From the NCBI GenBank assembly GCA_044375695.1, contig JBILMG010000003.1:10204-34203 (forward strand): a DNA stretch of 24,000 nucleotides, in the 5' to 3' direction. The stretch is from Minisyncoccia bacterium (GTDB lineage Bacteria; Patescibacteriota; Minisyncoccia; Phycocordibacterales; JAACPR01). The notes beneath the pieces are model-generated. The model was not told the origin of the DNA. It was given only the letters and a program-made list of their open reading frames with translations, and searched no databases. Positions 2 to 19,400 of the stretch are shown in pieces. Position numbers and translations under genes: made by a program. Positions within the stretch are counted from its first letter, which is position 1, and each line of letters opens with the position of its first letter.

Positions 2-1354
2 GCCTACCAGGATGTTTGCCAGACCCAGCCGGAGAACGACGAGCAGAAGTGCTCCGACGGGCAGGACAACGACCGCGACGGGTCGTACGACTGCTCTGAC
101 TCTGATTGCTCGGGCACCTCGGCCTGCTGGTGGGCCTGGAGCGGCTGGAACCCGGGCAACTGGTCTTCCTCCGAAACAGACTGCGGCAACGGCGTAGACG
201 ACGATTCTGACGGCTACTACGACTGCTCTGACTCCGAGTGCTCGTCCGACTACCGCTGCAGCCCCGTCACCAATCCGGTCACCACGGAAACCGCTCCGTG
301 GGGCTGGTTCGACTACAGCTTCTGCCAGAACGGCGGCGACGACGACTACGACGGGATGTACGACTGCTCCGACTCCGACTGCCAGGACGCGCCGGCCTGC
401 GCCGCTCGCCCGTGCGCCGTTACCGAGCAGGACTCGGACGGCAACTGCCAGGCAGACAACCCGTACTGGGGTTCCTCGTGCGGCGACGGCTACGACAACG
501 ATTCCGACGGGTCTCCTGATTGCTCCGACTCCGACTGCGCGGGCGACGAAGCTTGCTCGTCGGGCGGGGGCTCGGGTCCCGGGAATTTCAGCGAAATCAT
601 GCCGGACGGGTACCCGGTCAATTGGTACTACGGTAACGGTTACTGCGTGGACGGCATCGACAACGATGCGAGCGGCCTGATGGACTGCTGGGATTCGGCC
701 TGTGAAAATCAGGATCCCGCCTGCTACACGTTCACCGGTGTCGGTACCGAAGGTTGGCCGTACGACTCGCGCTTCCCGAACGGGAATCCTCGCGGAGGAG
801 ACGTGTGCGTAGCCGTCATGGAAGATTGCGGCAACGGCCAGGACGATGACTGCGATGGTCTGGTTGATTTCGCGGACGAAGACTGCGGCGGCGACCCCCT
901 CTGCGAGAACGAGTCCTCCGGAAACGTTGGCGGGGTTGGCGGCTGCGACCAGAACGCGCCGGCGCAGTGCGCTGACGGGTCTGACAACGACGGCGACGGT
1001 CGCTACGACTGCGACGACGAAGACTGCGCCTGGGCGGACGTCTGCCAGAGAGGGTGCGACGCCGAAGAGTCGTGCAACGGTTCCGACGACGACTGCGACG
1101 GCATGGTTGATGAGGGTGACGTGTGCCGCACCGCGTGCGAAGACGCCGAGGCCAAGAAGCTCGAAACCGATGCCTACTACGTTGACCGTTTCGAGACCTA
1201 CATTCGCGACCTGCGAACCAAGAGAATTCGCGGCTCCGTGTTCGATACCTTGGTTGAGCAGCTCGAAATTGCCTACAGCCAAGAGCCTGCGGTAATACTG
1301 GCTGGCGAGTGCTCTCCGAGCGATCCGGCCTTCTTCTACCCCTGGGAGAGATAG
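2..1354 (+). CDS. Cys/Asp-rich repeat protein, C-terminal part (gene starts upstream of window)
   Basis: The frame of the listed 356..1354 ORF stays open back to position 2 (AYQDVCQTQPENDEQKCSDGQDNDRDGSYDCSDSDC...). It holds at least 8 tandem modules of the form C-x-[NDG]-G-x-D-[DN]-D-x-D-G-x-x-D-C-x-D-x-[DE]-C, e.g. CGNGVDDDSDGYYDCSDSEC and CADGSDNDGDGRYDCDDEDC. Stop TAG at 1352-1354. Confidence 0.8.
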   Translation, partial: AYQDVCQTQPENDEQKCSDGQDNDRDGSYDCSDSDCSGTSACWWAWSGWNPGNWSSSETDCGNGVDDDSDGYYDCSDSECSSDYRCSPVTNPVTTETAPWGWFDYSFCQNGGDDDYDGMYDCSDSDCQDAPACAARPCAVTEQDSDGNCQADNPYWGSSCGDGYDNDSDGSPDCSDSDCAGDEACSSGGGSGPGNFSEIMPDGYPVNWYYGNGYCVDGIDNDASGLMDCWDSACENQDPACYTFTGVGTEGWPYDSRFPNGNPRGGDVCVAVMEDCGNGQDDDCDGLVDFADEDCGGDPLCENESSGNVGGVGGCDQNAPAQCADGSDNDGDGRYDCDDEDCAWADVCQRGCDAEESCNGSDDDCDGMVDEGDVCRTACEDAEAKKLETDAYYVDRFETYIRDLRTKRIRGSVFDTLVEQLEIAYSQEPAVILAGECSPSDPAFFYPWER

Positions 1355-1382
1355 TTAGGTTCTGGATCGTCACCTGAGGTAG

Positions 1383-1413
1383 AGAGCCGCCACCTTAAAA
1401 GGGTGGCGGCTCT
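1383..1413 (+). terminator. GC-rich hairpin downstream of the repeat-protein gene (possible terminator, no clear U-tract)
   Basis: AGAGCCGCCACC (1383-1394) pairs with GGTGGCGGCTCT (1402-1413), loop TTAAAAG. It is followed by TCGCGC rather than a T-run. Confidence 0.35.
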
Positions 1414-1500
1414 TCGCGCACCCCCCCCTCTGGAATCTCTTCACGCCAGCTTATTTCTTGGAGACGAGGTTGCCTGTAGCGTGCTACGCTTTCCCGGCCA

Positions 1501-2268
1501 ATGCCAACAAAAAAGAACAGCAAGAAGCCGCGCCTCGTCGTCGCCAACTGGAAAATGGCCCCCGAGAGCGCCAAGGACGGGATCAAGATTATCGCGGCTT
1601 TCAATAAGCAGCGGGTCGGGAAAGGGGCGTACGTCGGCTGGTGCCCTCCCTCCGTGCAGCTCTCGGCCCTAAAGGCTAAGTTCCGCGCTGCCGAGTTCGG
1701 CATTCAGGATATTTCTGCCGAAGCTGCCGGCGCGCACACGGGCCAAATTTCCGCCGCGCAGGCTAAAGCTGCCGGCGCCGGTTTTGCCATTATCGGCCAC
1801 TCCGAACGCCGCGCCGACGGCGAATCAGACGCGCTGATTGCCCGAAAGGTCAAAGCGGCCGCCGCGGCCGGTCTTCAGGTGCTCCTGTGCGTCGGCGAGC
1901 GTGACCGCGATGCCGGCGGCAGGTACCTCCGCGATCTCGCGAGCCAGGTTTCGGCTTCTCTCGCGGGCGTCACCCCGGCGGAAGCTAAAAAAATTGCCAT
2001 TGCCTACGAGCCGGTCTGGGCGATTGGGGCAGGAAAGAGCGCCATTGGCCCAAACGAGCTCCTCGAAACGTCCCGCTTCGTGCGCAAGACGCTCCGCGAA
2101 GCGCTCGGCGCCGCGGTTGGGGAAAAAATCTACATTCTCTACGGCGGCTCGGTTGACGCCGATAACGCCGGCGCGCTCCTCACCGAGGGCGAGGTTGACG
2201 GCTTCCTCGTCGGCCGCGCCTCGCTCGACCCCTACGCCTTCGCGGCCATCGTGAAAGCCTGCGCGTAG
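1501..2268 (+). CDS. tpiA: Triosephosphate isomerase
   Basis: 255 aa with TIM signatures visible in the translation: VANWKM, IIGHSERR, IAYEPVWAIGAGK, ILYGGSV. Confidence 0.95.
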   Translation: MPTKKNSKKPRLVVANWKMAPESAKDGIKIIAAFNKQRVGKGAYVGWCPPSVQLSALKAKFRAAEFGIQDISAEAAGAHTGQISAAQAKAAGAGFAIIGHSERRADGESDALIARKVKAAAAAGLQVLLCVGERDRDAGGRYLRDLASQVSASLAGVTPAEAKKIAIAYEPVWAIGAGKSAIGPNELLETSRFVRKTLREALGAAVGEKIYILYGGSVDADNAGALLTEGEVDGFLVGRASLDPYAFAAIVKACA

Positions 2269-2324
2269 CCGCGTAATTCTGTCTTCCCCGCACCCCCTTT
2301 TTTTTTCGCTCTCGCGTTTCTTGG

Positions 2325-2475
2325 GGTGGTATTTAACACGCGACCGTTTCTAAAATACCACCTCAAAAAATCGTCAAAATTGCGTAGATCCTTTTGAAAC
2401 AAGTATTTTTTAACGTACGTACAAAATCAGAAAAAACCACGGCGTGGTGTTTTGGAAACGGTCGTACGTTAAATA
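2325..2475. repeat. AT-rich intergenic element with nested inverted repeats between tpiA and pgk
   Basis: GGTGGTATTT (2325-2334) pairs with AAATACCACC (2353-2362). A 21-nt imperfect inverted repeat, TATTTAACACGCGACCGTTTC (2330-2350) versus GAAACGGTCGTACGTTAAATA (2455-2475), matches 18/21. A perfect 10-nt inverted repeat is TTAACGTACG (2410-2419) versus CGTACGTTAA (2463-2472). A small A-run/hairpin/T-run lies at 2431-2453. Confidence 0.5.
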
Positions 2476-2547
2476 CTAGGCTGGTTCTGTCGGCGAGGCG
2501 CCTGTGGACGATTCGTCGCGGGTAAGTTTTTGGGGTACCTTTAACGC

Positions 2548-3693
2548 ATGCCTTTAAACTTCCGAACGTTCGCCGATCTGCCCGCCGACCTCGCCGGCAA
2601 GCGCGTCATCGCCCGATTCGACTGGAACGTGCCGCTCGCCGAGGACGGCTCGGTCGCGAACGACTACCGCCTGCGCGCGAGCTTCGAGACCTTGGGCGCC
2701 CTCCTGACCCGCGGCGCCTCCGTGCTCGCAATTTCGCACCTCGGCCGCAAGGGCGAGTCGCTCGCGCCCGTCGTTTCGGCGCTGCGGGCGCACTTTCCGG
2801 GCGCGTCACTCGTCGAGGACCCCTTCACCCCCGAGGGTGCGGCGTGCGTCTGCGGGCTCACCGCCGGGCAGCTCTGCGTCGCCGAGAACATCCGCCGCTG
2901 GCCCGAGGAAGAGGCCAACGACGGTGCTTTTGCCGCCAAGCTCGCCGCGCTCGGCGACATCTACGTCAACGACGCCTTCCCGGTTTCGCACCGCGCGCAG
3001 GCGTCCGTCGACGCGCTCCCGCGCCTCCTGCCGAGCTACGGCGGCGCCCAGCTCTCCCGCGAGGTCGCCGCCCTGTCTAAGGTTTTTTCGCCGGCCCACC
3101 CGTTCGTTTTCATTCTCGGCGGCGCGAAGTTTGAGACCAAGCTGCCGCTCCTGCGCCGCTTCCAGGCCGCGGACAAAATTTTCCTCGGCGGCGCGCTCCT
3201 CAACGACCTGCTGAAGGCGAAGGGGATGCTCGTGGGCGCGTCGCTCGTGTCCGAAGATCCGTCGGCCGTCGCCGAGGTCGCGGCCTGGCAAAACCTGGTG
3301 CTCCCGGAGTCGCTCGTCGTGGCGAACGCGGCCGGCGCCCGCCGAACCGTTAAACCCGGCGACGAGGTGGCCGCCGACGAGCGCATTCTCGACGTCGGCG
3401 CCGAAAACCTGAAGGCCTCACTCTCGGGCGCGGCGTTCGTCCTCTGGAACGGCCCGCTCGGCCTCTGCGAGGCCGGCTTCAAAGAGGGGACCGAGGCGGC
3501 CGCCCGCGCCGTGGCCGATTCCGGCGCAACCGCAATCGTCGGCGGCGGCGACACGGTCGCGGCCATCGAGGCTCAGGGTATCGCCGACAAGTTCACCTTC
3601 GTCTCGACCGCCGGCGGCGCCATGCTCGACTTCCTCGCGAGCGGCGGCGACCTCCCGGGCCTCTTGGCCCTGGCGGCTTCTCCTCGCGGCTAA
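2548..3693 (+). CDS. pgk: Phosphoglycerate kinase
   Basis: 381 aa with PGK motifs: RFDWNVPL, ISHLGRKG, NDAFPVSHRAQAS, ILGGAKFETKL, LWNGPLG, VGGGDT. Confidence 0.95.
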   Translation: MPLNFRTFADLPADLAGKRVIARFDWNVPLAEDGSVANDYRLRASFETLGALLTRGASVLAISHLGRKGESLAPVVSALRAHFPGASLVEDPFTPEGAACVCGLTAGQLCVAENIRRWPEEEANDGAFAAKLAALGDIYVNDAFPVSHRAQASVDALPRLLPSYGGAQLSREVAALSKVFSPAHPFVFILGGAKFETKLPLLRRFQAADKIFLGGALLNDLLKAKGMLVGASLVSEDPSAVAEVAAWQNLVLPESLVVANAAGARRTVKPGDEVAADERILDVGAENLKASLSGAAFVLWNGPLGLCEAGFKEGTEAAARAVADSGATAIVGGGDTVAAIEAQGIADKFTFVSTAGGAMLDFLASGGDLPGLLALAASPRG

Positions 3694-3705
3694 GGCCTCA
3701 AACCT

Positions 3706-3721
3706 CGCTCAAGCTGGCTGG
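3706..3721. repeat. 16-nt perfect direct repeat, copy 1 (CGCTCAAGCTGGCTGG)
   Basis: Identical to 4420-4435. Lies just downstream of the pgk stop. Confidence 0.9.
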
Positions 3722-3808
3722 GCAGGTCGGATGCGTAGCTGTTTCTGGCGTTACCCCACCAACCTTCTGGCGAGCGTCGAATCGGCGCACCTCGGACGCC
3801 TGCCCCGC

Positions 3809-4357
3809 CTACGTCGTCGCCTCGGGCGGGAGTGGGCCGCGAACAATGACCTCCCTCTGCCCCGAACCTGGTCCACCTTTTCGGACCAGCACGCGAGCAG
3901 TCTCGACGAGTGGATACCCCTCGAGCACTGGCCTAATTACGGCAAACAGTTTTTCCGAATCGGGCCCGTACATGTACAGCACCGTCTCCGACGGGCCACG
4001 CTCGTTGCCGTCGTAGGTTCCCAGACCGTCCGCCTGGATTGCCTGAGTCAACCGATCTTCTAAGGTTGAGATGTCGTATTGCTCGTACACCTGTTTCGGG
4101 AGGCCGCTCCCCGACAGGTAGACGATGACCGCCTCGTTGCCAGCCACCGAACCAGATCTCGCGGAGTGCCGTCTCTCCTTCATCTTTCGGATGAGCGCGT
4201 GAATCTCCTCAAAGTTCACCACGGCAAGCACAATTACCAGCAAAACCGTCGCCTGGAGTGCCCCCACGCCGCCACAGACGAGTCCGACAAAAATTCCAAT
4301 CGGGAGCACGAGGGTAAAGAGCGGGCGCAGGAAATTTCGTGTGTGCCGGAAAGTCAT
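3809..4357 (-). CDS. Hypothetical membrane-anchored protein (two predicted TM helices plus a soluble C-terminal domain)
   Basis: The listed ORF is 3809..4426. I prefer the internal ATG at 4357 (MTFRHTRNFLRPLFTLVLPIGIFVGLV...). The longer N-terminus is encoded by a 10-bp terminator-like hairpin (4397-4419) that follows the HIT gene. Two hydrophobic segments are followed by ...YDGNERGPSETVLYMYGPDSEKLFAVIRPVLEG... I recognise no family with certainty. Confidence 0.6.
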   Translation of the reverse strand: MTFRHTRNFLRPLFTLVLPIGIFVGLVCGGVGALQATVLLVIVLAVVNFEEIHALIRKMKERRHSARSGSVAGNEAVIVYLSGSGLPKQVYEQYDISTLEDRLTQAIQADGLGTYDGNERGPSETVLYMYGPDSEKLFAVIRPVLEGYPLVETARVLVRKGGPGSGQREVIVRGPLPPEATT

Positions 4358-4387
4358 TGCGTGCCTGATTCTCTGGCAAACAAGCAG

Positions 4388-4419
4388 TGAAAGCAACGCT
4401 CCCCGGACACCGGGGAGCG
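4388..4419 (-). terminator. Probable intrinsic terminator of the HIT gene
   Basis: On the minus strand: CGCUCCCCGG-UGU-CCGGGGAGCG (perfect 10 bp, + coordinates 4397-4419) followed by UUGCUUUC. Confidence 0.5.
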
Positions 4420-4435
4420 CGCTCAAGCTGGCTGG
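4420..4435. repeat. 16-nt perfect direct repeat, copy 2 (CGCTCAAGCTGGCTGG)
   Basis: Identical to 3706-3721. Overlaps the last codons and stop of the HIT gene (minus strand ...GQPA*). Confidence 0.9.
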
Positions 4436-4851
4436 CCCAGTAGGTTTCGAATCTTCTCCGCGAATTCATCCGCCGCCGCGTCGGAGGGGAAGTTTTTGTG
4501 GCGGCCGAGGTAGCCGCCGTCGTTGTCGTCGCGGGGGATGACGTGCAGGTGGGCGTGGTGGACGACCTGGCCCGCGGCCTCGCCGTTGTTCATGACGACG
4601 TTGATGCCCGTGGCGCCGGAGACCTGCTTAATTGCGGCGGCCAAATCGCGCGCGACCTGGAACATGCGCGCGGCGGTTTCGTCGGGTAGCTCAAAAATGT
4701 TCACGTGGGGCGCCTTCGGAATTACCAGGCTGTGCCCCGGGTGGTTAGGGAAGGCGTCTAGGAAGGCGAAGACCAGCTCGTCCTCGTACAGCTTTCGGTG
4801 CGAGACCTCGCCGGCGATAATTTTTTCGAAGATGGTGCGGTTTTCGTTCAT
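4423..4851 (-). CDS. HIT-family nucleotide hydrolase/transferase
   Basis: 142 aa. Histidine-triad motif HHAHLHVIPR and N-terminal FEKIIAGE are typical of HINT-like proteins. Confidence 0.9.
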   Translation of the reverse strand: MNENRTIFEKIIAGEVSHRKLYEDELVFAFLDAFPNHPGHSLVIPKAPHVNIFELPDETAARMFQVARDLAAAIKQVSGATGINVVMNNGEAAGQVVHHAHLHVIPRDDNDGGYLGRHKNFPSDAAADEFAEKIRNLLGQPA

Positions 4852-4944
4852 GGTTCGCCTATTTTAGATTATTTTTCCCCAATTTAATTAGCTTTTAAGG
4901 GTAGGCGCTGGGAGAATGAGCTGGTTAGCCAACTAAGCTCGCCC

Positions 4945-6579
4945 GTGAACCTCCAGAAGATCGCCCTCGCCTCATCGGCCATTGCCGTCGCGCTCTCGGC
5001 CGCGGTTGGCGCCGGTCTCCCGTCCTCGCCCGCCCTCTCCCTCGGCTGGTACGGCGGCGCCTGCGACGACGCGCTCGCCCAGAACCCGGGCGACCCCGCC
5101 GGCTGCCGGTACGAGGCCCGCGAGTCGAATTGCGGCGACGACATCGACAATGATTCGGATGAGGCGGCGGACTGTGCCGACTCTGACTGCGCTGGATTCG
5201 AAAGGTGCGGCAGCTGTATTTCGTCCGGAGCCGAGAGCTGCCACAACGGCGGCGATGATGATTGCGACGGCCAAATCGATTTGGCGGATCAGGATTGCTG
5301 CGCGGGGGACTGGCTCTCGGCGTGGACCAGCGGCCTGCCGCTTTGCGGGGGTGGCTGTGGCCGAACCGAAACCGATGTCGACGGCGACTGTGAACGAGAC
5401 GACAGAACCTGGCTAGGCGCTGACTCCTGCGCCGACGGCGCCGACGGCGAAGGTGACGGTCTGGTCGACTGCGCTGACCCCGATTGTGTCGATGACCTGT
5501 TTTGCGTCCAAGAAATTTGCGCTAACGGCTCCGACGACAACGGGAACGGCTTCGTCGACTGCCAGGATATTTCCTGCTGGAACACGGCGGAGTGCGCCTC
5601 CTGCGTGGCCGTCACCGAGTCGTGCGGCAACGAGGCTGACGACGACTGCGACGGCTCTGTCGACTGTCAGGATTCCGACTGTGCTGGCGAGGCTATCTGC
5701 GGCGGAGCGACCGTAGCCGTCGCAGAGGCTTTGGGTACCGGCGACGCGGCGAATGAGGCGGGCAGAAACACCCCAGGAGCGGGCGATTCCGATGAGGGAG
5801 GAGGTGATAGCGGCACCTGCTGCGTCTGCTTCTACGGGCAGACCGGCGTAGAGGGGTTGGACGAATCTTGCTACCTCGAGAAGACCTGCGACAAGATGCT
5901 CTCCGGGGGCAAGAAGAATGGAATCTGCGACACCACGAGCTCGATGGCGGATCCGGGCGATAGCGTTAGCCGCGCCGAGCAGGCGAAAGACGCCTGTGAC
6001 GGCACTGCTGTTTCTCGGCTCTTCGGCGGCGGCGATCCCTCGAGCGTCGTCGTTATGGTCGACGGGCACAATGACCCCTCGGCCTACTCGTGCTGCGCGG
6101 ACACCGCCTCTGCACTCATTTCGGAGTACGTGATCGATGGTGATCCGATTCCCCAGAGCATCGACGTGACCCATTTCGGGTGCCAGACGTTCGATAATGA
6201 GAGCGGCGCGCGCGAGGCCGCTCGGGCGCTCCAGCAGCAAATGGATTCCCTTGGGCACGGGGGTACGGTGACTGTTTCCGGCAATCAGGGTTACTCGAAC
6301 CTCGCTAACCCAGGTGACCCGTGCGGAAAGATGATGGCTTTCACCGTGTGCGCGGACGGCGTCGAAACGAACCTGCCGAGCTGCGGCGGCGGGTGCCTCT
6401 ACACGGGAAGCGCTCAGTCTGCCGCGTGCAAAGATGATGAGGGTAGGCGACGAGAGCAGCGATGCGAACTGAAGGCGGGTTGCCAGACCGCGCCTGTCGA
6501 CAACTCTTCAGACCCGAACGGGTGCCTAGGCGAAGACCCGAACTCCTCCTGCTGCCCGAACAACGGTTCCTGGAGGTAG
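4945..6579 (+). CDS. Secreted Cys/Asp-rich repeat protein, paralog of the 2..1354 product, with a distinct Cys-rich C-terminal domain
   Basis: GTG start. Signal-peptide-like N-terminus MNLQKIALASSAIAVALSAAVGAG. It has 5 or more acidic Cys modules (CGDDIDNDSDEAADCADSDC, CHNGGDDDCDGQIDLADQDC, CADGADGEGDGLVDCADPDC, CANGSDDNGNGFVDCQDISC, CGNEADDDCDGSVDCQDSDC). A ~250-aa Cys-containing C-terminal region has no motif I recognise. Confidence 0.85.
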   Translation: MNLQKIALASSAIAVALSAAVGAGLPSSPALSLGWYGGACDDALAQNPGDPAGCRYEARESNCGDDIDNDSDEAADCADSDCAGFERCGSCISSGAESCHNGGDDDCDGQIDLADQDCCAGDWLSAWTSGLPLCGGGCGRTETDVDGDCERDDRTWLGADSCADGADGEGDGLVDCADPDCVDDLFCVQEICANGSDDNGNGFVDCQDISCWNTAECASCVAVTESCGNEADDDCDGSVDCQDSDCAGEAICGGATVAVAEALGTGDAANEAGRNTPGAGDSDEGGGDSGTCCVCFYGQTGVEGLDESCYLEKTCDKMLSGGKKNGICDTTSSMADPGDSVSRAEQAKDACDGTAVSRLFGGGDPSSVVVMVDGHNDPSAYSCCADTASALISEYVIDGDPIPQSIDVTHFGCQTFDNESGAREAARALQQQMDSLGHGGTVTVSGNQGYSNLANPGDPCGKMMAFTVCADGVETNLPSCGGGCLYTGSAQSAACKDDEGRRREQRCELKAGCQTAPVDNSSDPNGCLGEDPNSSCCPNNGSWR

Positions 6580-11974: not shown

Positions 11975-12718
11975 ATGCTAGAAAAATTTCTCGAGGAAAT
12001 CGGCCTGTCGGGCAACGAGGCAAAGGTTTACCTGGCTCTTCTAGAGCTTGACCACGAATCGGTGCTCGAGCTATCTCGCCGAACCAGTATCAACCGAACG
12101 ACCATCTACCCGATTCTCGAGTCGCTCGCCCGGCAAGGCTTGGTGTCGGAAGTGCAGATTGGCGCCAAGACGCACTACCAGGCCGAACCGCCTGAGCGGC
12201 TAGAGACAGTGCTGGAGCGTCGTAGGGTAGAGCTCGACGGACACCGCAAGCGTCTCTCGGAAGTTGTGCCTGAGATGAAGAGTCGCATGCGCGAAGGTGC
12301 GGCTAGACCTGTGGTGAAGTACTACGACGGCAAAGAGGGCGTTGTCTCCTCGATGGAAGACTTCTTTAGTGCCGGCGCAGAGAAGTCCGACTCCATTTAC
12401 ATGGTTTACAACAAGGATCGTCTGGACGGTCACTTTACTGAGAAAGATCGAGAGCGTTACCGTGGCAAGCGGGTGCACGCTAACGTTCCGGCGGTAGCCT
12501 TGTACTGGTCTGAGAAGGTAACGCTTCCTGAGAAAGGGGTGATGTCCGAGTGCAAGAAGCTTCCGGCTGACGCGGAGGTGCTTTGTGATTTGGCGGTTGC
12601 GGGAGACAAGGTCCGCGTCATCACGCTCGGCAAGAAAGTCTCGAGCCTGATTATCCAGCACCCAGATATCGCGCACACCCTGCGGGTGATACTGAAAGAT
12701 TACTACCGGCGCCTTTAG
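11975..12718 (+). CDS. TrmB-like helix-turn-helix transcriptional regulator
   Basis: 247 aa. The N-terminal winged-HTH (LGLSGNEAKVYLALLELDHESVLELSRRTSINRTTIYPILESLARQGLV) is typical of the TrmB family. It is a paralog of 18648..19400. Confidence 0.8.
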   Translation: MLEKFLEEIGLSGNEAKVYLALLELDHESVLELSRRTSINRTTIYPILESLARQGLVSEVQIGAKTHYQAEPPERLETVLERRRVELDGHRKRLSEVVPEMKSRMREGAARPVVKYYDGKEGVVSSMEDFFSAGAEKSDSIYMVYNKDRLDGHFTEKDRERYRGKRVHANVPAVALYWSEKVTLPEKGVMSECKKLPADAEVLCDLAVAGDKVRVITLGKKVSSLIIQHPDIAHTLRVILKDYYRRL

Positions 12719-12726
12719 TGAGGCTC

Positions 12727-13080
12727 GAAAAAATAAAAGAATAGTCCGGCGTCGCAAGGTGCGACGCCGGACCTGTTTTCGTGGGCCGATTAGTGATCGG
12801 CGCCACCTTTTTCTAAGAGAGAGCTTCTCTCTGGTGGTGGGGGAGGGTTAGTGATTCACTTGGCCACCCCCTTCTCGTTTTGTTTTTTCACTTCTTTTTC
12901 CTCGGGGAGGTTTGGCTAGGCACTGTTAGTCGCGCGGTGTCGCGGGTTGGGGTCTTTCGACCCGTCACCCGCTCCGACCTGCTTCTTAGTGGTCCATCTG
13001 CACCTCCCTGTTGATTGTTGCCTGTCTCGTGGCGCCTGGTGGGCGTCGCAGATTTCCGGTCTGCCCGCGAGATATATTCT
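12727..13080 (-). ncRNA. Candidate ~350-nt non-coding RNA of unknown class
   Basis: It runs from the predicted TSS (~13079/13080, 6-7 nt downstream of a perfect minus-strand TATAAT) to the bidirectional terminator at 12744-12780. It contains no ORF beyond 3 codons. Many helices are visible, e.g. GCGGG..GGGUC-GAAA-GACCC..CCCGC, AGAGAGA-AGC-UCUCUCU and GCCGAU-CACUA-AUCGGC. There is an A-rich linker and a duplicated AUCACUAA motif. Confidence 0.45.
12744..12780. terminator. Bidirectional intrinsic terminator
   Basis: Perfect 13-bp stem GTCCGGCGTCGCA (12744-12756) / TGCGACGCCGGAC (12760-12772), loop AGG. CTGTTTTC lies downstream on the + strand. An A-rich run (GAAAAAATAAAAGAATA, 12727-12743) upstream gives UAUUCUUUUAUUUUUUC on the minus strand. 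Confidence 0.75.
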
Positions 13081-13229: not shown

Positions 13230-13257
13230 TTGACAAAATATTTTAATCGGCTATAAT
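13230..13257 (+). promoter_or_regulatory. Perfect-consensus sigma70-type promoter (rightward) with an A/T-rich upstream tract
   Basis: TTGACA (13230-13235), a 16-nt spacer, then TATAAT (13252-13257). About 90 nt of A/T tracts lie upstream (UP-element-like). Predicted TSS is about 13264. Confidence 0.75.
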
Positions 13258-14014
13258 GCCCGCATAAGAACGTTCAAACAGTCTGACAGGTGCCTTTCGG
13301 CCACCGAATCGATTCCCCCTCCAGCAACCAACAGCCATGAAGCTCGTAGTGCTTCCGAACGGCCTCGTCATCTCCGCTAAGGAGTGGCAAGCCATTCGCG
13401 GTCGCTAATCGCGATCGTTATCTGCTTCCCGGCGAAAGCTTGGGTGGCGGGGGCTAGAGGGGCCCTGTCAACAGAATGAATTCCGCGGCTGTGAGGCTTC
13501 TGATTTCAGCCCCGCGGGAACCATCAGGTTCCCCCATCTATAGAGCCGCCGACCTAGGTCAGGCCGGCGGCTCTACGGACGGATGATCTTTAAAAAGCTC
13601 TAGAAACCCCTCCCACGCGGCTCGCGCACGAAGAAAGCTGCGCGCTCGGCCCGCGTGGGAGGTTGCAGCTCCAGGCCGTTCCGGAACCAGCGTCCGGCGT
13701 AAAAGAGGTGGCACCGTCTGTGGAGACGGGAGATCGCCACAGGATTAAACGAGCCTTCGCCCTATGCGTGGTCGACAGTTTCTCGAGAGATCCTGAGCGG
13801 TTTCTAGAGCCGCACTGCAAATATTTCTCGCTAGTCGTTAGCGGGTGTCAGGGGAAAAGCTAAGACCTCAAGGCTCCCCGAAGTACTCGCGTTCGCCGAG
13901 CTGGTTGCCCGGCGCAAAGAGGGACGCAGCCGGGGAACTGCACCCCGACACCAAAGAGCAGTCGATTGTGTTTCGGCGCATCGATCGGTCTGGGCACCGA
14001 AAACCAAAACGCCC

Positions 14015-14065
14015 ACCCTCGCGGGATGCGTATCCGGCCTGACGAGTCCGAAAGGACGAAAGGGT
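14015..14065 (+). ncRNA. Hammerhead ribozyme, type III (HH1)
   Basis: ACCCU-C| then stem I GCGGGAU-GCGU-AUCCGGC (one G.G mismatch). Then CUGACGA, stem II GUCC-GAAA-GGAC, GAA, and AGGGU pairing back to ACCCU. All core positions are present (C3 U4 G5 A6 N7 G8 A9, G12 A13 A14, A15.1-U16.1, C17). Predicted cleavage after C14020. Confidence 0.75.
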
Positions 14066-14540
14066 CAGACGAACATTCAAACAGAGGAGAAACTCTCCGC
14101 ACCGCCCGGCGCGCGAACCAATCGCGAATCGAGTGGTGCGGGGAGTTGGTTGACCCCTAGGCACGTGAGGTGGAGGGAGCTTCTGGCCCTCACCCGCGAC
14201 CTGATAGTCGCGGGGCAGTCCTGACCGACTGAAGAACGTCGTGCATCGAGAATCGCCAATACGGCTGGCTCATCGTTGAGCCAGCCGCGGAGGAGAAGCG
14301 GGTTCCTGAACCCGTGAAGTATCCACCGCTCCACAACATCTCCCCAAAGGAGAGACACAAGGTTTCGCGCTCCTGCGAGGCCTGTGTGGAGACACCGAGT
14401 CAGGGCAGTGCCTCTAGTCGAGAGGCGGCGAACAGAGATTCGCCGAAGCACTGCAATCGATGCAACGGGCTAGAGCTCGGCGGCAGATTCGGCGCACTTT
14501 TGCCGACTCATCAACCACCTAAAATCCGGCGCGTCAGCGC

Positions 14541-14600
14541 CGGACCCTGTCTCCGGGTGTGTACCCGGACTGACGAGCCCGAAAGGGCGAAACAGGTTCG
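14541..14600 (+). ncRNA. Hammerhead ribozyme, type III (HH2)
   Basis: CGGA(C)CCUGU-C| then stem I UCCGGGU-GUGU-ACCCGGA (7 bp, perfect). Then CUGACGA, stem II GCCC-GAAA-GGGC, GAA, and ACAGGUUCG, giving a 9-bp stem III with one bulged C. GUC cleavage triplet. Predicted cleavage after C14551. Confidence 0.9.
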
Positions 14601-14785
14601 ATACACGACCGCGCGTTCGCCGTCCTGCTGACCCCATTGCGGGGCACTGTCTCGACCCGAGCTTCCACTCTCAAGTGGGCCGGGAGACCGGCAAGACGGA
14701 CGGCGCGTCGGGGCGAAGATGTGGCCATCGTCACCCCGACGCGCCGAAAAGGCGCCTCGAGATCTTTCACAGAAAAACGTACCAG

Positions 14786-14837
14786 CAGCCTGCATCGGCG
14801 CGACGACGACCTATCGTCGTCGCGCCGATGCAGGCTG
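14786..14837 (+). repeat. Perfect 24-bp inverted repeat (hairpin with a 4-nt loop) inside the large RNA
   Basis: CAGCCTGCATCGGCGCGACGACGA (14786-14809), loop CCTA, then TCGTCGTCGCGCCGATGCAGGCTG (14814-14837). There are no mismatches. Confidence 0.9.
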
Positions 14838-15700
14838 AGACGACAGCCAGGGCAGGAGCGGCAGCGCCAGGAACCTAGTGCCGAGGACCGTTCGGTCCGG
14901 TGACGCTTTTACGTCGCTGAGGCGGGCAGGCTCTGTTCGCAAGCGTTTCTCGCGTCGGGTTAAAACCGGTATTAGCCGGATAACCCCGACGTTGTAGAGG
15001 CCCCGCAATAGGCTTCGAGAGAAACGTACGGCAATCGATATCCTAGGACAAAACTCTCTTCGCCTGAGAGTAGCTCCACACCCGCGCGAGCGGGGAACAG
15101 ACTGGAACCACCAGCTGGAGGATTTTCGAAAGTCAGGGAGGAGGTCGAAACGCGGCGTTGCGGCTGCGCGTAGGCTAAACCACCCATCGTCAATTTTTGC
15201 CTTATGGCCTGGTACGGAACCATGGTCCTTGAACCCACCAACCGACAGCTCGGCCTCCCGCGTGTTGCGGTCGGCACCCGGTACGGGTCGCCGAATCTCT
15301 GCCGCCTGGTAGATGTGCGCGTTCCCCGGTTCGCCCGCGACGCGCGGGGCCAGAAGCGCGCGCTCTCCAGAAAGGAGCGTCGCAAGCTCGCCCGCATGGT
15401 GTGGCACTTCGTCCAGCACGAAGGTCGCCACGGATGCGCGTCGATGCTCGGCGCCACCTTTGGCGGCGTGCGCGGCGGAAGGCCGGAAATGCGCGTCGTG
15501 AGCAACGACGGGCCGCCGGAATGGTGACGAGGACCTAAATTCCCGGAGCTCTTACGAGGGAGCGTTCGTACGGGGCGGGGAGGAGCAGACCTCCCTCTGA
15601 ACAGAAGCTCGGGCTGACTCCAAATAGCCCCCGAGCAAAGCGGATTTAAAGCCAAGGTTTCCCACAAACCTGCCCGGACGAGCACCTATCGCTCGCCGGC

Positions 15701-15769
15701 CCTGTCCGCGGGTATGACTCGCGCTGACGATGTCCGCTCGCCGCGTGGCGAGACCAAGGACGAAACAGG
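15701..15769 (+). ncRNA. Hammerhead ribozyme, type III (HH3), with an extended stem II
   Basis: CCUGU-C| then stem I CGCGGG-UAUGA-CUCGCG. Then CUGACGA plus one extra U, and stem II GUCC...GGAC carrying an extension hairpin CUCGCC-GCGU-GGCGAG. Then GAA and ACAGG. GUC triplet. Predicted cleavage after C15706, 90 nt upstream of the ATG at 15797. Confidence 0.8.
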
Positions 15770-15796
15770 TGCAAGAACTTTCGAAAAATAAATACT

Positions 15797-16183
15797 ATGA
15801 GCAACTTCAATTTTAAATCCTACGTTGGCGGCCAGCTCCTCATGCTCACCAAGGCTTTCGGTGCGGCCAGCGGCAAGAAGAACGAAATTTGGCGCCGCGG
15901 TGAGATTGCTGCCATTCGCGAAGAGGGAGACGTCGCCGTCATCGAGTTCGCCTGGACGGCAATCAAGCGAGGCGGCCGGTACTTCCTGGACGATTCGTCC
16001 TCAGAGGTGGCCGTTCCCCTTGGTTCGGCACGCAGCAGCCGAAGCTACTCGTTGGTGGCTTTCGAGCGAAGCGTGGAGCTGCGGCTCGATATGGTGTACT
16101 GCTTTACCGAGCCCGACGACAATCGGAACGTGCCGCTCTCGAAGGTAGGAGAGCAGCGTCCGATTCGGCGGACCTCAAGCTGA
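15797..16183 (+). CDS. Hypothetical protein (128 aa), no recognisable domain
   Basis: ATG-initiated ORF immediately downstream of HH3, with balanced amino-acid composition (MSNFNFKSYVGGQLLMLTKAFG...). Its stop codon is embedded in a strong intrinsic terminator. Confidence 0.6.
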   Translation: MSNFNFKSYVGGQLLMLTKAFGAASGKKNEIWRRGEIAAIREEGDVAVIEFAWTAIKRGGRYFLDDSSSEVAVPLGSARSSRSYSLVAFERSVELRLDMVYCFTEPDDNRNVPLSKVGEQRPIRRTSS

Positions 16184-16202
16184 GGTCCGTTTTTATTTTT
16201 TT
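16170..16202 (+). terminator. Intrinsic terminator
   Basis: GGACCTCA-AGC-TGAGGTCC (8 bp) followed by GTTTTTATTTTTTT. Confidence 0.8.
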
Positions 16203-16249
16203 GGACTTCATCGTCTCTTCACCGTCGGAAACTTACCGTTAGCCGTACC

Positions 16250-17602
16250 GTGTCTCGGACCGTTTCATTGCTCGCCGCTCTGGCTGTCTTTGCTGCATCA
16301 TTTTGGCGCGGCGCGAGTTACGACGCGTCTAATCGTTGCCCTGCTGCGCCGCCGGATGTCCTGCGCGGCGTGGCGGTCGAGGTTCGTGTGGGCACGTTCG
16401 GCGACCGCGCGCTGGTGCGCGGGGAAAATGGAACGTGGGGTTTCGTGGCGGCGGTCGGGAGCGGGGAGGTGGCGGTTGGGGATAAGGTCGAAATATCTGG
16501 AGCCAGGGTTTTCCGTATAAAAGATTTTCTGGGCGACGGCGGACAGATGTTCCCGTACGCGAACCTGATGCGGTCCCGCGGCTACTGCTTCGAGGCGAAG
16601 CGGGGCGAGGTAAAAATTATTGGGAGTTCAGGCGGCTTTGCCGACCAGCTGAGGGCGCTCGGCGTCGCCGCCCGCGAGCGTATTGGGCGCGTCTTGCCGC
16701 CGGTGCCGGCGGCTCTTTCGGCTGGGGCTCTCTTTGGCGGCGACGACGGGATAGGCGAAGATTTAGAAGAATCTTCGCGCCGAGCCGGATTGGCGCACGC
16801 GCTCGCGCTTTCCGGCTTCAATGTGGCGGTTTTCGCCGGGGCAATCGATTTGGTGTTGCGCGGCTTCATGCCGCGCTCCGCGCGTATTTTGGGAGGAGCG
16901 GCCGCTGCTTGGCTCTTGGTGTCTCTGGCCGGGCTGCCACCGTCGGGGGTACGCGCCGCACTCGCCTGGACCGTCGGCGCCGCCGCGCGCCTATCTTTCC
17001 GGCGGGCCGAGGCGCCGCGGGCGCTCCTCTACGCCGCCTTCGTCTACTCCTGGTGGAATCCGCTCGCGATCGCCTTCGATTTGTCGCTGCAGCTCTCGCT
17101 CCTTGCGTGCCTTGGCCTCGCGGCGTGGGCGGCGTCGGCTGCGGAGAGATTGGTGGGGGTTCCGGGCGTGCTCGGCATTCGGGAGGCTGCCGCCTCTACC
17201 TTGGCGGCTACCGTTGCGACGCTGCCGCTCTCGGTGTGGTCTTTCGGGCAAATTTCCCTGGTGGCGCCGCTCGCGAACGCCGCGCTCGCCTACGCTATTC
17301 CCGGGATGATGTGGGCGGGTTTCGCCGCCGCTGCGGTTTCTTTCTCCGATGCTCTGTCTGACGCCGTCGGCTCTGTTCTCGCGCTACCCGCCGAGCTTTT
17401 CTCTTTCGTGGCGCTGCGGTTTGGCGGCTTTGCCTGGTCTAGCGTCTCGGTCTCTTCTGGTCCTGTGCTCGCGCTGCTGGGCTCGTTCGTCGTTTCGCTG
17501 GCGGCGTTCTGGTCTATCGGCGCGGCCCGTCGGCGCGAGGCCGAGGCCTGGACCTCAGAGGTTCTCCGTCTTCGCCGGTCCATCGACGAAACTTCTGGCT
17601 AA
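16250..17602 (+). CDS. comEC: ComEC/Rec2-like DNA-uptake channel protein (OB-fold plus competence membrane domain, lacking the MBL domain)
   Basis: 450 aa from a GTG start. The N-terminal region has a TM helix and a beta-rich segment. The polytopic membrane core has the ComEC-like motif GLAHALALSGFNVAVFAG (compare HLLAISGLH). No C-terminal metallo-beta-lactamase domain is present in this ORF. Confidence 0.8.
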   Translation: MSRTVSLLAALAVFAASFWRGASYDASNRCPAAPPDVLRGVAVEVRVGTFGDRALVRGENGTWGFVAAVGSGEVAVGDKVEISGARVFRIKDFLGDGGQMFPYANLMRSRGYCFEAKRGEVKIIGSSGGFADQLRALGVAARERIGRVLPPVPAALSAGALFGGDDGIGEDLEESSRRAGLAHALALSGFNVAVFAGAIDLVLRGFMPRSARILGGAAAAWLLVSLAGLPPSGVRAALAWTVGAAARLSFRRAEAPRALLYAAFVYSWWNPLAIAFDLSLQLSLLACLGLAAWAASAAERLVGVPGVLGIREAAASTLAATVATLPLSVWSFGQISLVAPLANAALAYAIPGMMWAGFAAAAVSFSDALSDAVGSVLALPAELFSFVALRFGGFAWSSVSVSSGPVLALLGSFVVSLAAFWSIGAARRREAEAWTSEVLRLRRSIDETSG

Positions 17603-17609
17603 AAGAAAA

Positions 17610-17640
17610 CTCGGCTGCCAATCGACAGCCGAGCATTTTT
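17610..17640. terminator. Bidirectional intrinsic terminator between convergent genes
   Basis: CTCGGCTG-CCAATCGA-CAGCCGAG, flanked by AAAAGAAAA upstream and CATTTTT downstream. Confidence 0.7.
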
Positions 17641-18512
17641 CAGACAGCCCCGACGAGCGAGAGCAGGAACGCGTCGCCTCGGTTGGCCGCGCCGGGAATG
17701 CCCAGCTGGCCTGCGAACTGCGCGGCCTCTTCGTCGCCGAAGTTGTCCGGCGTGTGCATGAGCACCATCGAGCTCTTGATTCCATCGGGCAGGGTCTCGA
17801 GCTCTGCAACCGTGGCGTGCACGTTACCGGCGCGCGTCGCGTCGTGGAAGAACCACTCGGCGCCGCGGGCGGCGTACTCTTCCACCAGCTCGCGGTCGAA
17901 ACGCGTGTCCATAGAGACGAACGCGCCGAACTGCGGCAGGTAGAAGCCGTAGGAGACCATCGAATCCCGCCAGCTGTCGGCGGTTCCGGGCGCGTGGCGC
18001 GTCCGGAAGATTTCAATCTTCAGCTCTCCGACGGTTACCCGCTCGGCGCGCTCGCTGATCTGCTCTGGGCGAATCACCCGGAAGTAGTCGTCGACCGTAG
18101 AGGGTGGCGACGTGTCCCAGGCGAGGCCGCCCTTGAGCGTCTCGTCCCACAGGTGCGGTTCGAGCGCGCGAGGCAGCACGAGGCCGGGCTTGCGGTTCGC
18201 CACCCAGCGGCACTCCTGCGCCGCGGTGGCTAAGCCGTTGGCGTGGTCCGCGTGGCAGTGGGACACGAAGAACGCGTCGATGTCGCCGAGCGTGAGCCCG
18301 GTCGATTCGGGGAGCGCCTCGGGCCACTTGCGGCCGCAGTCGATGGCCAGGCGGGTGTTGCCGTGGACGAGGACCAGGTTGGTTTCGCCGCGGCCGCCAG
18401 GTTTGGTGAAGGCGCCGCCGGCGCCGATGAAGGCGAGCGCGAGCTCGCCGCGATTGGTAGATTTAGGGACAACGTTACCGCGTCCCAGGTAGGAAATTCC
18501 GGTAGTTTTCAT
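17640..18512 (-). CDS. Metallo-beta-lactamase-fold hydrolase
   Basis: 290 aa. HxHxDH motif in FFVSHCHADHANG. Additional His/Asp ligand positions are typical of the MBL fold. Confidence 0.85.
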   Translation of the reverse strand: MKTTGISYLGRGNVVPKSTNRGELALAFIGAGGAFTKPGGRGETNLVLVHGNTRLAIDCGRKWPEALPESTGLTLGDIDAFFVSHCHADHANGLATAAQECRWVANRKPGLVLPRALEPHLWDETLKGGLAWDTSPPSTVDDYFRVIRPEQISERAERVTVGELKIEIFRTRHAPGTADSWRDSMVSYGFYLPQFGAFVSMDTRFDRELVEEYAARGAEWFFHDATRAGNVHATVAELETLPDGIKSSMVLMHTPDNFGDEEAAQFAGQLGIPGAANRGDAFLLSLVGAV

Positions 18513-18647: not shown

Positions 18648-19400
18648 ATGAAACAGGAATCAGAGTCGGTCGCCGCCCGCGTCGCCGCGATCGGCCTCGA
18701 CGGCGTCGCCGCCCGCGTCTACGCCGCCGCCCTCGAGCTGGGCGAGGCGCCGGCATCCGAAATTGCCCGCGCCGCGGACGTGCCGCGCACTTCGGCGGCC
18801 TACGCGCTCGACGAGCTGGTGGCGAAAGGGGTGCTCCTCGAGGCTACAAAGGGGCGCGCCACCAGCTACCGCGCGGTGCCGCTCGCCGTCATCTTCGAGG
18901 AGGTGCGCGACAGCCTTCGCTCGGCCGAGGCGCTGCGCGCGGTCGGCGAGAAGAAGCCGGGCGTGTTCCGCCCACCCGAAACCCTCATCCTGCGTGGTCC
19001 CGCCGGCTTCCGCGAAGCCTGGCGCCGCGTCCTCTCTTCTGGGGCCAAGAGCTACACCGTTATTTCCGATCCGCGAGAGTTCCGCGACTACATGCGCGAG
19101 CACGACATTCTGGAAGATTTGATTGCCGAGAAGGTTCGCCGGAACATGACCAGCCGCAACATCGTCGTGGACTCTGACTACTCGCGCGACGTCTTCAAAA
19201 AAGATTCGTCCGAGAATCGAGAGACGCGCTTCCTGCCGAAAGGTTTCCCGGTGCCGTGCGTGGAGGTTGCCTGCGAGGAGCTGGCTTTCTTTGCCATGCC
19301 GCGCCTGGACGGCACCATTGTGCTGGTTGATTACCCCGAGTTTGGCCAGTCGCGCCTCGCGGTCTTCGAGGCGGTCTGGGCAACCCTGGGGGAGAGGTAG
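18648..19400 (+). CDS. TrmB-like helix-turn-helix transcriptional regulator (second paralog)
   Basis: 250 aa. N-terminal wHTH: LDGVAARVYAAALELGEAPASEIARAADVPRTSAAYALDELVAKGVL. Its length and architecture match 11975..12718. Confidence 0.75.
   Translation: MKQESESVAARVAAIGLDGVAARVYAAALELGEAPASEIARAADVPRTSAAYALDELVAKGVLLEATKGRATSYRAVPLAVIFEEVRDSLRSAEALRAVGEKKPGVFRPPETLILRGPAGFREAWRRVLSSGAKSYTVISDPREFRDYMREHDILEDLIAEKVRRNMTSRNIVVDSDYSRDVFKKDSSENRETRFLPKGFPVPCVEVACEELAFFAMPRLDGTIVLVDYPEFGQSRLAVFEAVWATLGER

Follow-up and report, generated by a model that had tools for sequence, protein, structure and literature searches.

A non-phage operon with three type III hammerhead ribozymes and boxA-like motifs in a Patescibacteria contig

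We analyzed a 24-kb stretch of contig JBILMG010000003.1 from a Minisyncoccia bacterium (contig positions 10,204-34,203, renumbered here from 1 to 24,000; hereafter the window), scanning both strands. The window contains three type III hammerhead ribozymes (HH1, HH2 and HH3), which lie within 1.76 kb on the same strand. A promoter and an intrinsic terminator bracket them in an operon of ~2.9 kb that also holds two open reading frames (ORFs), ORF107 and ORF128. A gene for a TrmB-family regulator and a divergent small RNA are located directly upstream (Table 1). Cleavage at the three predicted sites would split the operon transcript into four RNAs.

Three hammerheads in one transcription unit

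In HH1, HH2 and HH3, the core nucleotides C3-U4-G5-A6-N7-G8-A9 (CUGACGA) and G12-A13-A14 (GAA) are intact. All three have the A15.1-U16.1 pair and H17, with the cleavage triplet CUC in HH1 and GUC in both HH2 and HH3. Stems I and II are closed, stem III is open, and the minimum free energy fold of each ribozyme alone is the three-way hammerhead junction. A rule-based scan requiring the core, a 4-bp stem II, a stem I hairpin, the A15.1-U16.1 pair, H17 and a 3-bp stem III returned exactly three sites, with cuts after 14020, 14551 and 15706. The same scan found no hammerhead in 300 dinucleotide-preserving shuffles.

Relatives were collected through exact-protein look-ups and DNA patterns, and the fetched comparison loci, which are metagenome, viral or genome contigs, carry L-numbers (L006, L012, L185 and so on). 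A degenerate pattern covering the core and stem II retrieved 50 viral and at least 120 metagenome contigs as well as 82 genome stretches. Fifty-eight hammerheads of one design, among them the three window copies, were aligned (A4) to build a covariance model, R1. Run against both strands of the window with filters off, R1 scored the three hammerheads at 76.4, 68.8 and 46.5 bits (the last for HH3), values that are partly circular because their own sequences were in the training set; the next-best match in the 24 kb reached 12.7 bits. Sequence, covariance models, scan and folds thus bear out the original prediction of three complete plus-strand type III hammerheads with these sites, helices and cleavage triplets, and the R1 search agrees that neither strand carries a further copy.

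With a start near 13264, the terminator at 16167-16191 and the three cuts, the predicted fragments are 757, 531, 1155 and ~495 nt long. The transcript had been described as free of ORFs, which did not hold: ORF107 and ORF128 both show gene-like codon usage, substitutions biased to codon position 3 and no insertions or deletions among orthologues. For ORF107, GC content at third codon positions (GC3) is 0.81 and codon log-odds are positive. Its orthologues are of identical length and 81-82% identical, and codon position 3 holds 33-41 of their 57-66 differences, a pattern from which out-of-frame controls differ. GC3 and codon log-odds are likewise gene-like for ORF128.

The non-coding stretch is therefore confined to 13264-15203 (~1.9 kb), where codon log-odds are negative in all six frames. 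Its parts are strongly structured, with folding z-scores of -4.4, -8.3 and -13.1 relative to shuffles. Between HH1 and HH2, the longest same-strand ORF encodes 29 amino acids in 481 nt at 61% GC, making this the most ORF-poor single unit among 60 inter-hammerhead intervals; the one interval with a lower ORF score, of 2970 nt, spans several units. When the 1.9-kb non-coding part was compared in six frames with every fetched locus, no protein remnants emerged. The matches obtained were hammerhead-derived pseudo-matches and short ones to the leader of ORF107 in the related locus L011.

Several parts of the operon can be followed in relatives. In the unit 3 leader, the perfect 24-bp hairpin largely keeps its pairing in L012 despite ~10 substitutions, and it is long enough to serve as a substrate for a double-strand-specific RNase. 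In L012, the 3' end of the hammerhead (...GAAAGGGCGAAACAG) is identical to that of HH2 and is followed directly by ACGATCTTTCAAAC. Because L012 joins hammerhead and motif in this way, the window has apparently gained ~165 nt between HH2 and its motif, and this segment looks like a small insertion, since CGAT/GAGAT borders it on both sides. No tRNA or tmRNA was found in the window, and no tandem repeats were found at the locus.

Table 1 Features of the hammerhead operon and its surroundings (window coordinates)
Feature	Position	Strand	Remarks
TrmB-family regulator gene	11975-12718	+	Pfam TrmB, E = 1.3e-15; directly upstream of the locus; candidate regulator
Divergent small RNA, ~340 nt	12735-13078	-	Perfect sigma-70 promoter at 13113-13086
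Terminator hairpin of divergent RNA	12773-12743	-	Bidirectional
Three-codon ORF of divergent RNA	12997-12986	-	Met-Asp-His-stop
Shine-Dalgarno sequence of divergent RNA	13007-13001	-	GGAGGTG, strong
Promoter, hammerhead operon	13230-13257	+	Sigma-70, TTGACA-16-TATAAT, 12/12 consensus matches; start inferred near 13264
Unit 1, predicted 757-nt non-coding leader RNA	13264-14020	+	Start to HH1 cut; z = -4.4
boxA-like copy GAACGTTCAAAC	13268-13279	+	5 nt after start site; GAAC-type, ~7/11 to consensus
Unit 1 hairpin	13534-13582	+	Directly before GATCTTTAAAA
boxA-like copy GATCTTTAAAA	13585-13595	+	After unit 1 hairpin; top matrix site on both strands, 10/11 to published consensus
HH1, type III hammerhead	14014-14067	+	Predicted cut C14020/G14021; G.G mismatch at stem I pair 3
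Unit 2, predicted 531-nt hammerhead-flanked non-coding RNA	14021-14551	+	HH1 at 5' end; z = -8.3
boxA-like copy GAACATTCAAAC	14071-14082	+	Just 3' of HH1; weak GAAC-type variant, ~7/11
Unit 2 3'-end hairpin, with CCCUGUC	14525-14544 (hairpin)	+	-17.4 kcal/mol
HH2, type III hammerhead	14545-14598	+	Predicted cut C14551/U14552
Unit 3, predicted 1155-nt RNA	14552-15706	+	650-nt structured leader and ORF107
Segment of ~165 nt between HH2 and its motif	14598-14760	+	Includes hairpin 14701-14746; absent from L012
boxA-like copy GATCTTTCACA	14761-14771	+	10.6 bits, 9/11 to published consensus
Perfect 24-bp hairpin with 4-nt loop, unit 3 leader	14786-14837	+	-53.6 kcal/mol, z = -11
ORF107, conserved small protein, 107 aa	15204-15527	+	Between HH2 and HH3, inside unit 3
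GC hairpin directly 5' of HH3	15674-15699	+	Invariant in window, L006 and L009; -15.1 kcal/mol
HH3, type III hammerhead	15700-15771	+	Predicted cut C15706/C15707; extended stem II, extra U after A9
Unit 4, predicted ~495-nt mRNA for ORF128	From 15707 to terminator	+	
boxA-like copy GAACTTTCGAAAAA	15775-15788	+	Between HH3 and ORF128 start; GAAC-type, ~7/11
ORF128, all-beta predicted protein	15797-16183	+	Directly after HH3, before terminator
Intrinsic terminator, operon end	16167-16191 (or to 16200)	+	
MBL-fold (metallo-beta-lactamase) protein	17640-18512	-	Best Pfam match: anti-Pycsar Apyc1 family, E = 2.6e-24, above family cut-off
Second TrmB-family gene (TrmB2)	18648-19400		Within 7 kb of the first; also matches DUF7342

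A hammerhead class and its flanking module

The window copies belong to a type III class with a 6-7 bp stem I capped by a UGYGU-type loop (R-UGYGU-Y), a GYCC-GAAA-GGRC stem II and a stem III that is short and open. Both HH1 and HH2 are textbook examples, and HH1 is 85-92% identical over its full length to copies in unrelated contigs. Across the 58 class members, 97.8% of cells were paired; shuffles gave 70.2%, and sliding the partners gave 31-43%. Changes on both sides occurred at six of the seven stem I pairs. Stem I provides the independent covariation evidence, because the search pattern dictated stem II and the filter dictated three pairs of stem III. The HH3 orthologues (L006, L009, L011 and L186) carry compensatory changes in stem I (G-C to A-U), in stem II (C-G to U-A and U-A to C-G) and in the stem II extension. 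Both data sets support the earlier argument that the helices are selected for pairing.

In an R1 census, 95 metagenome loci held 136 hammerheads and 80 genome loci held 126. Of the 80 listed genome matches to the class pattern, 63 carry Patescibacteria or Candidate Phyla Radiation (CPR) labels. These include Saccharibacteria, Parcubacteria, Paceibacterota, Kaiser-, Ames-, Uhr-, Wolfe- and Taylorbacteria as well as Minisyncoccia. Same-strand type III arrays of 2-6 hammerheads are frequent among the retrieved loci, with three or four common. Very dense examples come from Patescibacteria genomes: L189 has six in 3 kb (3339-6412), L199 (Taylorbacteria) five on the same strand and L209 (Kaiserbacteria) four. 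Bacterial hammerheads have often been found clustered, flanking small non-conserved ORFs (Perreault et al. 2011, PMC3088659; 2017 review PMC6155905), and three-hammerhead bacterial arrays cleave in vitro at all sites (PMC3088659). Since close same-strand arrays are thus known from both the literature and the retrieved loci, the cluster itself is not unusual, contrary to the original prediction. The same prediction stressed its distance from phage-like genes. No phage gene occurs in the window (no PHROG match, no phage DNA or protein similarity and no integrase), so this part stood, although such a setting is less special than supposed, being typical of the class copies in Patescibacteria.

Array cargo also varies in kind. 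In L122 and L149 (oriented 900-5600), units of the four-hammerhead arrays carry genes for a DEAH-type helicase and for a Csx3-like protein, and arrays in L157 and L131 flank a DinG-like helicase, so the cargo is not limited to small unknown proteins. In the viral contigs (L013-L062), many pattern matches are type II hammerheads with a GGAA stem II loop and a closed stem III ending in GUC. The viral type III copies are followed by an A-rich leader and then a start codon.

The genomic ribozymes recur together with two flanking parts. Upstream, the 38 nt preceding hammerheads fold at a mean of -10 to -16 kcal/mol, compared with -5 for shuffled sequence, and such a hairpin is present at both HH2 and HH3. 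Downstream, the 40 nt after hammerheads show a 28-fold enrichment of GTTCTTT. We derived a position weight matrix (PWM) for this motif by expectation-maximization (EM) on the metagenome and viral loci, which gave G-T-T-C-T-T-T-G/A-A/C-A-A, and tested it on the independent genome loci. There, 43 of 92 hammerheads had a downstream match no more than 40 nt away, at a median offset of 2 nt, and 6 of 92 had one upstream. None of 17 viral hammerheads was followed by a match.

This motif resembles boxA. The published boxA consensus is GYTCTTTAANA, and the E. coli rrn boxA is UGCUCUUUA; the class-wide consensus, drawn from hundreds of loci, equals the published one at 9-11 of 11 positions. The leader and the 16S-23S spacer of rRNA operons each contain a hairpin and boxA, which shield long untranslated RNA from Rho. 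We therefore infer that the motif after the hammerheads may be a boxA, with a general form that may be GTTCTTTGA and GAAC or GATC variants in the window lineage.

The window has five copies of this putative boxA (Table 1). The string at 15775, after HH3, reads GAACTTTCGAAA, and the motif at this place is kept as GAACTTTC in L006, L011 and the distant L185 and as GCACTTTC in L009. In L189 and L239, as in the window, a copy directly follows the start site; the start-proximal position reads GATCTTTGA in L189 and GTACATTGAAA in L239. L147 carries GTTCATTCAAA after one hammerhead, and other copies in its array carry GTTCTTTAAAAA and GATCTTTAAAAA. We grouped the GAAC-type copies with the canonical motif because of the conservation in L185, the mixture in L147 and the start-proximal copies in L189 and L239. 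A reading of the motif as a -35 hexamer was rejected, as the conserved GTTC falls outside the -35 element and the window copies have no TTGACA. The region upstream of the S12 gene yielded no informative motif.

Cargo genes, TrmB linkage and chromosomal context

Neither ORF107, ORF128 nor the neighboring cargo ORFs matched a family in Pfam, PHROGs or PADLOC. The predicted structure of ORF128 is all-beta, with a predicted local distance difference test (pLDDT) score of 87, and has no detectable fold relative. Its family has eight members, nearly always adjacent to hammerheads. In the window, L006, L009, L011 and L186, the gene is immediately preceded by a hammerhead; in L007/L008 and L183/L184 it is immediately followed by one, and in L185, which has three hammerheads in total, it is flanked on both sides. 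A protein-profile search with ORF128 of the genome and metagenome collections gave zero confirmed loci.

Cargo between the ribozymes differs among relatives, with a 156-aa ORF (ORF156) in L009 and ORF107 in the window. L006 comes from a near-identical strain: nucleotide identity is 95-98% in the MBL-fold gene, in TrmB2 and in the 3' part of ComEC, and HH3 reaches 93%. Identity falls to 53-76% across the stretch that holds ORF128, the terminator and the 5' end of ComEC (window 15783-16520, L006 151-890). Such a sharp drop between near-identical strains marks this stretch as a local hot spot, where sequence is replaced or evolves rapidly. The near-identical ribozymes of ~55 nt may serve as recombination sites that shuffle units, which would fit the cassette-like variation. 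Only in L007, the locus of a distant homologue, does a large serine recombinase gene sit beside the ORF128-family member. Both ORFs of that locus share a 5' leader of ~60 nt (AACCGTTTTAAAACA.A.TACGTC...TAACGTCAC...TTG.ACA.TAA.ATG; 2180-2270 and 2860-2930), one copy after a promoter and the other after a hammerhead.

We also found the arrangement upstream of the operon in other loci, all originally selected only via the hammerhead pattern or ORF128 homology. Full-length homologues of the upstream TrmB of the window, with 38-45% identity, are encoded 0.9-2.1 kb upstream of the arrays in L185, L189, L247, L123, L239 and L077, in the same orientation, and L189, L239 and L247 carry Patescibacteria labels. 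Along with the gene content, the plan shared with these labelled genomes points to a probable CPR origin of the window. All six have a near-consensus divergent promoter pair between TrmB and the array. The leftward RNA in TrmB-linked loci is ~300 nt long and ends at the TrmB terminator. A Shine-Dalgarno sequence with a mini-ORF occurs at the equivalent place between TrmB and the operon in L185, L189, L077 and L123; the mini-ORFs have three or four codons and read MDH in the window and MPD, MSD, MND and MWDP elsewhere. The rightward transcripts open with 750-1150 nt that contain no convincing ORF in the window, L185, L239 and L247. The divergent RNA of the window had no Rfam match, and the leaders of the seven TrmB-linked loci had no detectable similarity, with no 9-mer common to at least four of them. 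This recurrent arrangement suggests that TrmB may control the hammerhead operon.

The surrounding chromosome is ordinary gene territory, with TIM, PGK, RecJ, a histidine kinase, RNase H and TrmB upstream, and ComEC, the MBL-fold protein, the second TrmB, SOD, L28, S12, S7 and EF-G downstream.

Proposed mechanism and its alternatives

We propose a strongly promoted operon whose transcript is cut co-transcriptionally by three hammerheads into four RNAs, with the boxA-like motif proposed to reload anti-termination, and we put the probability of this reading at roughly 70%. The nascent transcript would cut itself after C14020, C14551 and C15706, giving the 757-nt leader, the 531-nt RNA, the 1155-nt RNA with ORF107 and the ~495-nt ORF128 mRNA. 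As is usual for hammerhead cleavage, each upstream piece would end in a 2',3'-cyclic phosphate, with a GC hairpin just before the end at HH2 and HH3, and each downstream piece would start with a 5'-OH and a compact ribozyme fold. In bacterial RNA decay, such ends are expected to shield both termini and to uncouple the fates of the segments. With ends defined and protected in this way, the segments would probably gain independent stability and expression.

The motif (G-W-W-C-N-U-U-...-AAA, grading into the boxA sequence GYUCUUUAA in related loci) would then reload the NusB/NusE complex. Anti-termination renewed in this manner would let RNA polymerase cross the ~1.9 kb of untranslated RNA, much as boxA in the leader and spacer does for rRNA operons. 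Such coupling to Nus factors would account for the positions of the motif, for its absence from phage copies, whose units are immediately translated, and for the crossing of the 1.9 kb; it is suggested by resemblance to boxA at the level of sequence.

Several observations weigh against this proposal. Rfam at curated thresholds gave zero matches in the window, and the three threshold-level hits that had been forecast were not obtained. HH2 aligned end to end with RF00008 at 46.2 bits (14544-14598, E = 3e-8) and HH1 at 30.9 bits (14013-14067, E = 7e-4), both below the curated gathering threshold of 48.5 bits, and HH3 had no match to RF00008 even in a permissive search. The third stem I pair of HH1, which is not adjacent to the core, is a G.G mismatch, and HH3 has an additional U between A9 and G10.1. 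No stable hairpin was found on folding the sequence upstream of HH1. Among the motif copies, only those at 13585 and 14761 score well on the PWM; the GAAC-type copies at 13268, 14071 and 15775 score poorly. An 11-bit PWM match is not rare in 48 kb, and the pattern that found four motif copies solely inside the locus was defined post hoc. No rRNA gene occurs in any fetched locus, and the consensus used for comparison is the published one, which may not be the lineage's own boxA. Elsewhere, the motif often abuts a Shine-Dalgarno sequence and a start codon (for example, CTTTGAGGAG...ATG and TTCAAAAGGAGG...ATG).

The Rfam shortfall appears to reflect the model rather than the motif, because clear relatives in other loci straddle the threshold at 47.8-50.5 bits. 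The window class shares with RF00008 type III the core, the A15.1-U16.1 pair, H17, closed stems I and II and the open stem III. It differs in its R-UGYGU-Y stem I loop and GYCC-GAAA-GGRC stem II, with HH1 and HH2 falling below the threshold, and HH3 and its orthologues additionally have a long stem II extension, HH3 with its extra U escaping detection. The orthologues of HH3 in L009, L011 and L012 do not have this U. De la Pena and Flores are said to have observed in 2001 that a viroid hammerhead tolerates an extra A or U at the A9/G10.1 position. Other permissive Rfam matches in the window were to microRNA and small RNA models on long hairpins and were taken as chance.

The start-codon proximity noted above is also the basis of an alternative in which the motif is a 5' untranslated region element for translation or RNA stability, or the site of a protein unrelated to Nus and boxA, and the hammerheads simply define mRNA 5' ends. 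The copy following HH3 fits this explanation, since it occupies the positions 9-22 nt ahead of the ORF128 start and its form is kept even in the distant L185, as does the poor match of the GAAC-type copies to boxA. Yet the window also carries the motif after the start site and after HH1, with no ORF for hundreds of bases, and the agreement with the published boxA over hundreds of loci would be left aside. Phage hammerheads likewise precede start codons but have no motif. We regard this alternative as unlikely, while giving it serious weight. The ribozymes might also release RNAs for circularization by an RNA ligase or by ribozyme ligation, producing stable circles like those of retrozymes and viroids. 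The extremely structured units and the chemistry of the cut ends, 5'-OH and 2',3'-cyclic phosphate, would suit this; HH2 and HH3 have a common stem III (CCUGUC / ACAGG), so that the joined 1155-nt unit could rebuild a full hammerhead, as could a unit in L009 and nested pairs in L157 and L093. This route is closed to the 531-nt unit, as the stem III sequences of HH1 and HH2 mismatch, and unit 3 contains an ordinary ORF. The hammerheads are of single polarity with no minus-strand copy, the units are not tandem repeats, and no RNA ligase gene is present in the window. Circular or spliced products of bacterial arrays were sought by Perreault et al. (PMC3088659) and none were found. Taken together, these points make circularization quite improbable.

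Least probable, in our judgment very much so, is an origin of the cluster by decay of a mobile element or prophage, in which the non-coding stretches would be dead genes and the hammerheads relics that no longer function. The serine recombinase beside the family member in L007, the differing cargo of L009 and the window, the strong divergence of ORF128 between near-identical strains and the stem I mismatch of HH1 are what one might see in such a relic. Against this, all three cores are intact, the promoter and terminator are perfect, and HH3 with its flanking hairpin is better conserved than the adjacent coding sequence. A pseudogene origin of the non-coding part was rejected on the six-frame comparison. 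The non-coding stretches are far more structured than shuffles, with one hairpin keeping its pairing through substitutions, and the whole locus plan recurs in distant Patescibacteria.

A wider version of the proposed self-cleaving, Nus-coupled operon would treat it as a widespread Patescibacteria architecture not described before. In this version, a TrmB gene, a divergent RNA with a three-codon ORF and an operon split by hairpin-hammerhead-boxA modules would form one system. Self-cutting would be coupled to Nus reloading, the ribozyme would take the role of RNase III, and functional structured RNAs and small hypervariable proteins would be released. We offer this generalization tentatively, as a possibility that we hold to be somewhat doubtful.

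The closest known arrangements are the hammerhead clusters of prophages (Perreault et al. 2011, PMC3088659; PMC6155905), in which polycistronic hammerheads on one strand likewise flank small, poorly conserved ORFs and for which processing into gene-length RNAs has been proposed. In the window, the three hammerheads flank ORF107 and precede ORF128, but no integrase or phage gene is near. Its four units include two long non-coding RNAs, and the locus is linked to TrmB and a divergent small RNA. Ribozymes of the window type also come with a hairpin and a boxA-like motif, whereas phage copies have no motif. Clustered bacterial type III hammerheads are thus already known, and the locus adds a non-phage context and two long non-coding units. 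Like rRNA operons, with their boxB hairpin and boxA in leader and 16S-23S spacer, it has a long structured untranslated transcript, here predicted to be cut co-transcriptionally, in which hairpins precede G-Y-U-C-U-U-U-A/G-A motifs both close to the start and beyond processing sites. Unlike them, it would use a built-in ribozyme in place of RNase III, its motif copies include divergent GAAC-type ones and it contains no rRNA.

The purpose of bacterial hammerheads is an acknowledged open question in the literature, for which this locus is a clean non-phage example. It leaves the definition of the hammerhead unchanged and offers strong transcription signals and conserved flanking parts. In the literature that we could search, which is incomplete, we found no work linking hammerheads with Patescibacteria and no description of the concentration of the class in CPR/Patescibacteria genomes. 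The same holds for the boxA-like motif after just under half of the genomic copies and no viral ones, and for the conserved locus of TrmB and divergent RNA in a subset of arrays. If true, the Nus-coupled reading would give bacterial hammerheads a defined mechanistic role, tying self-cleavage to the control of elongation.

As in retrozymes and viroid-like RNAs, type III hammerheads bound a unit in the window, HH2 and HH3 sharing stem III. Unlike those, the locus is a DNA-encoded bacterial operon with promoter and terminator, of single polarity and with no repeats. One metagenome contig from the collection is itself of the viroid-like kind: L100 (1-1530) consists of a 578-nt tandem repeat with hammerheads on the plus strand at 15, 593 and 1171 and on the minus strand at 488 and 1066, the pattern that marks a circular, viroid-like replicon whose assembly is multimeric.

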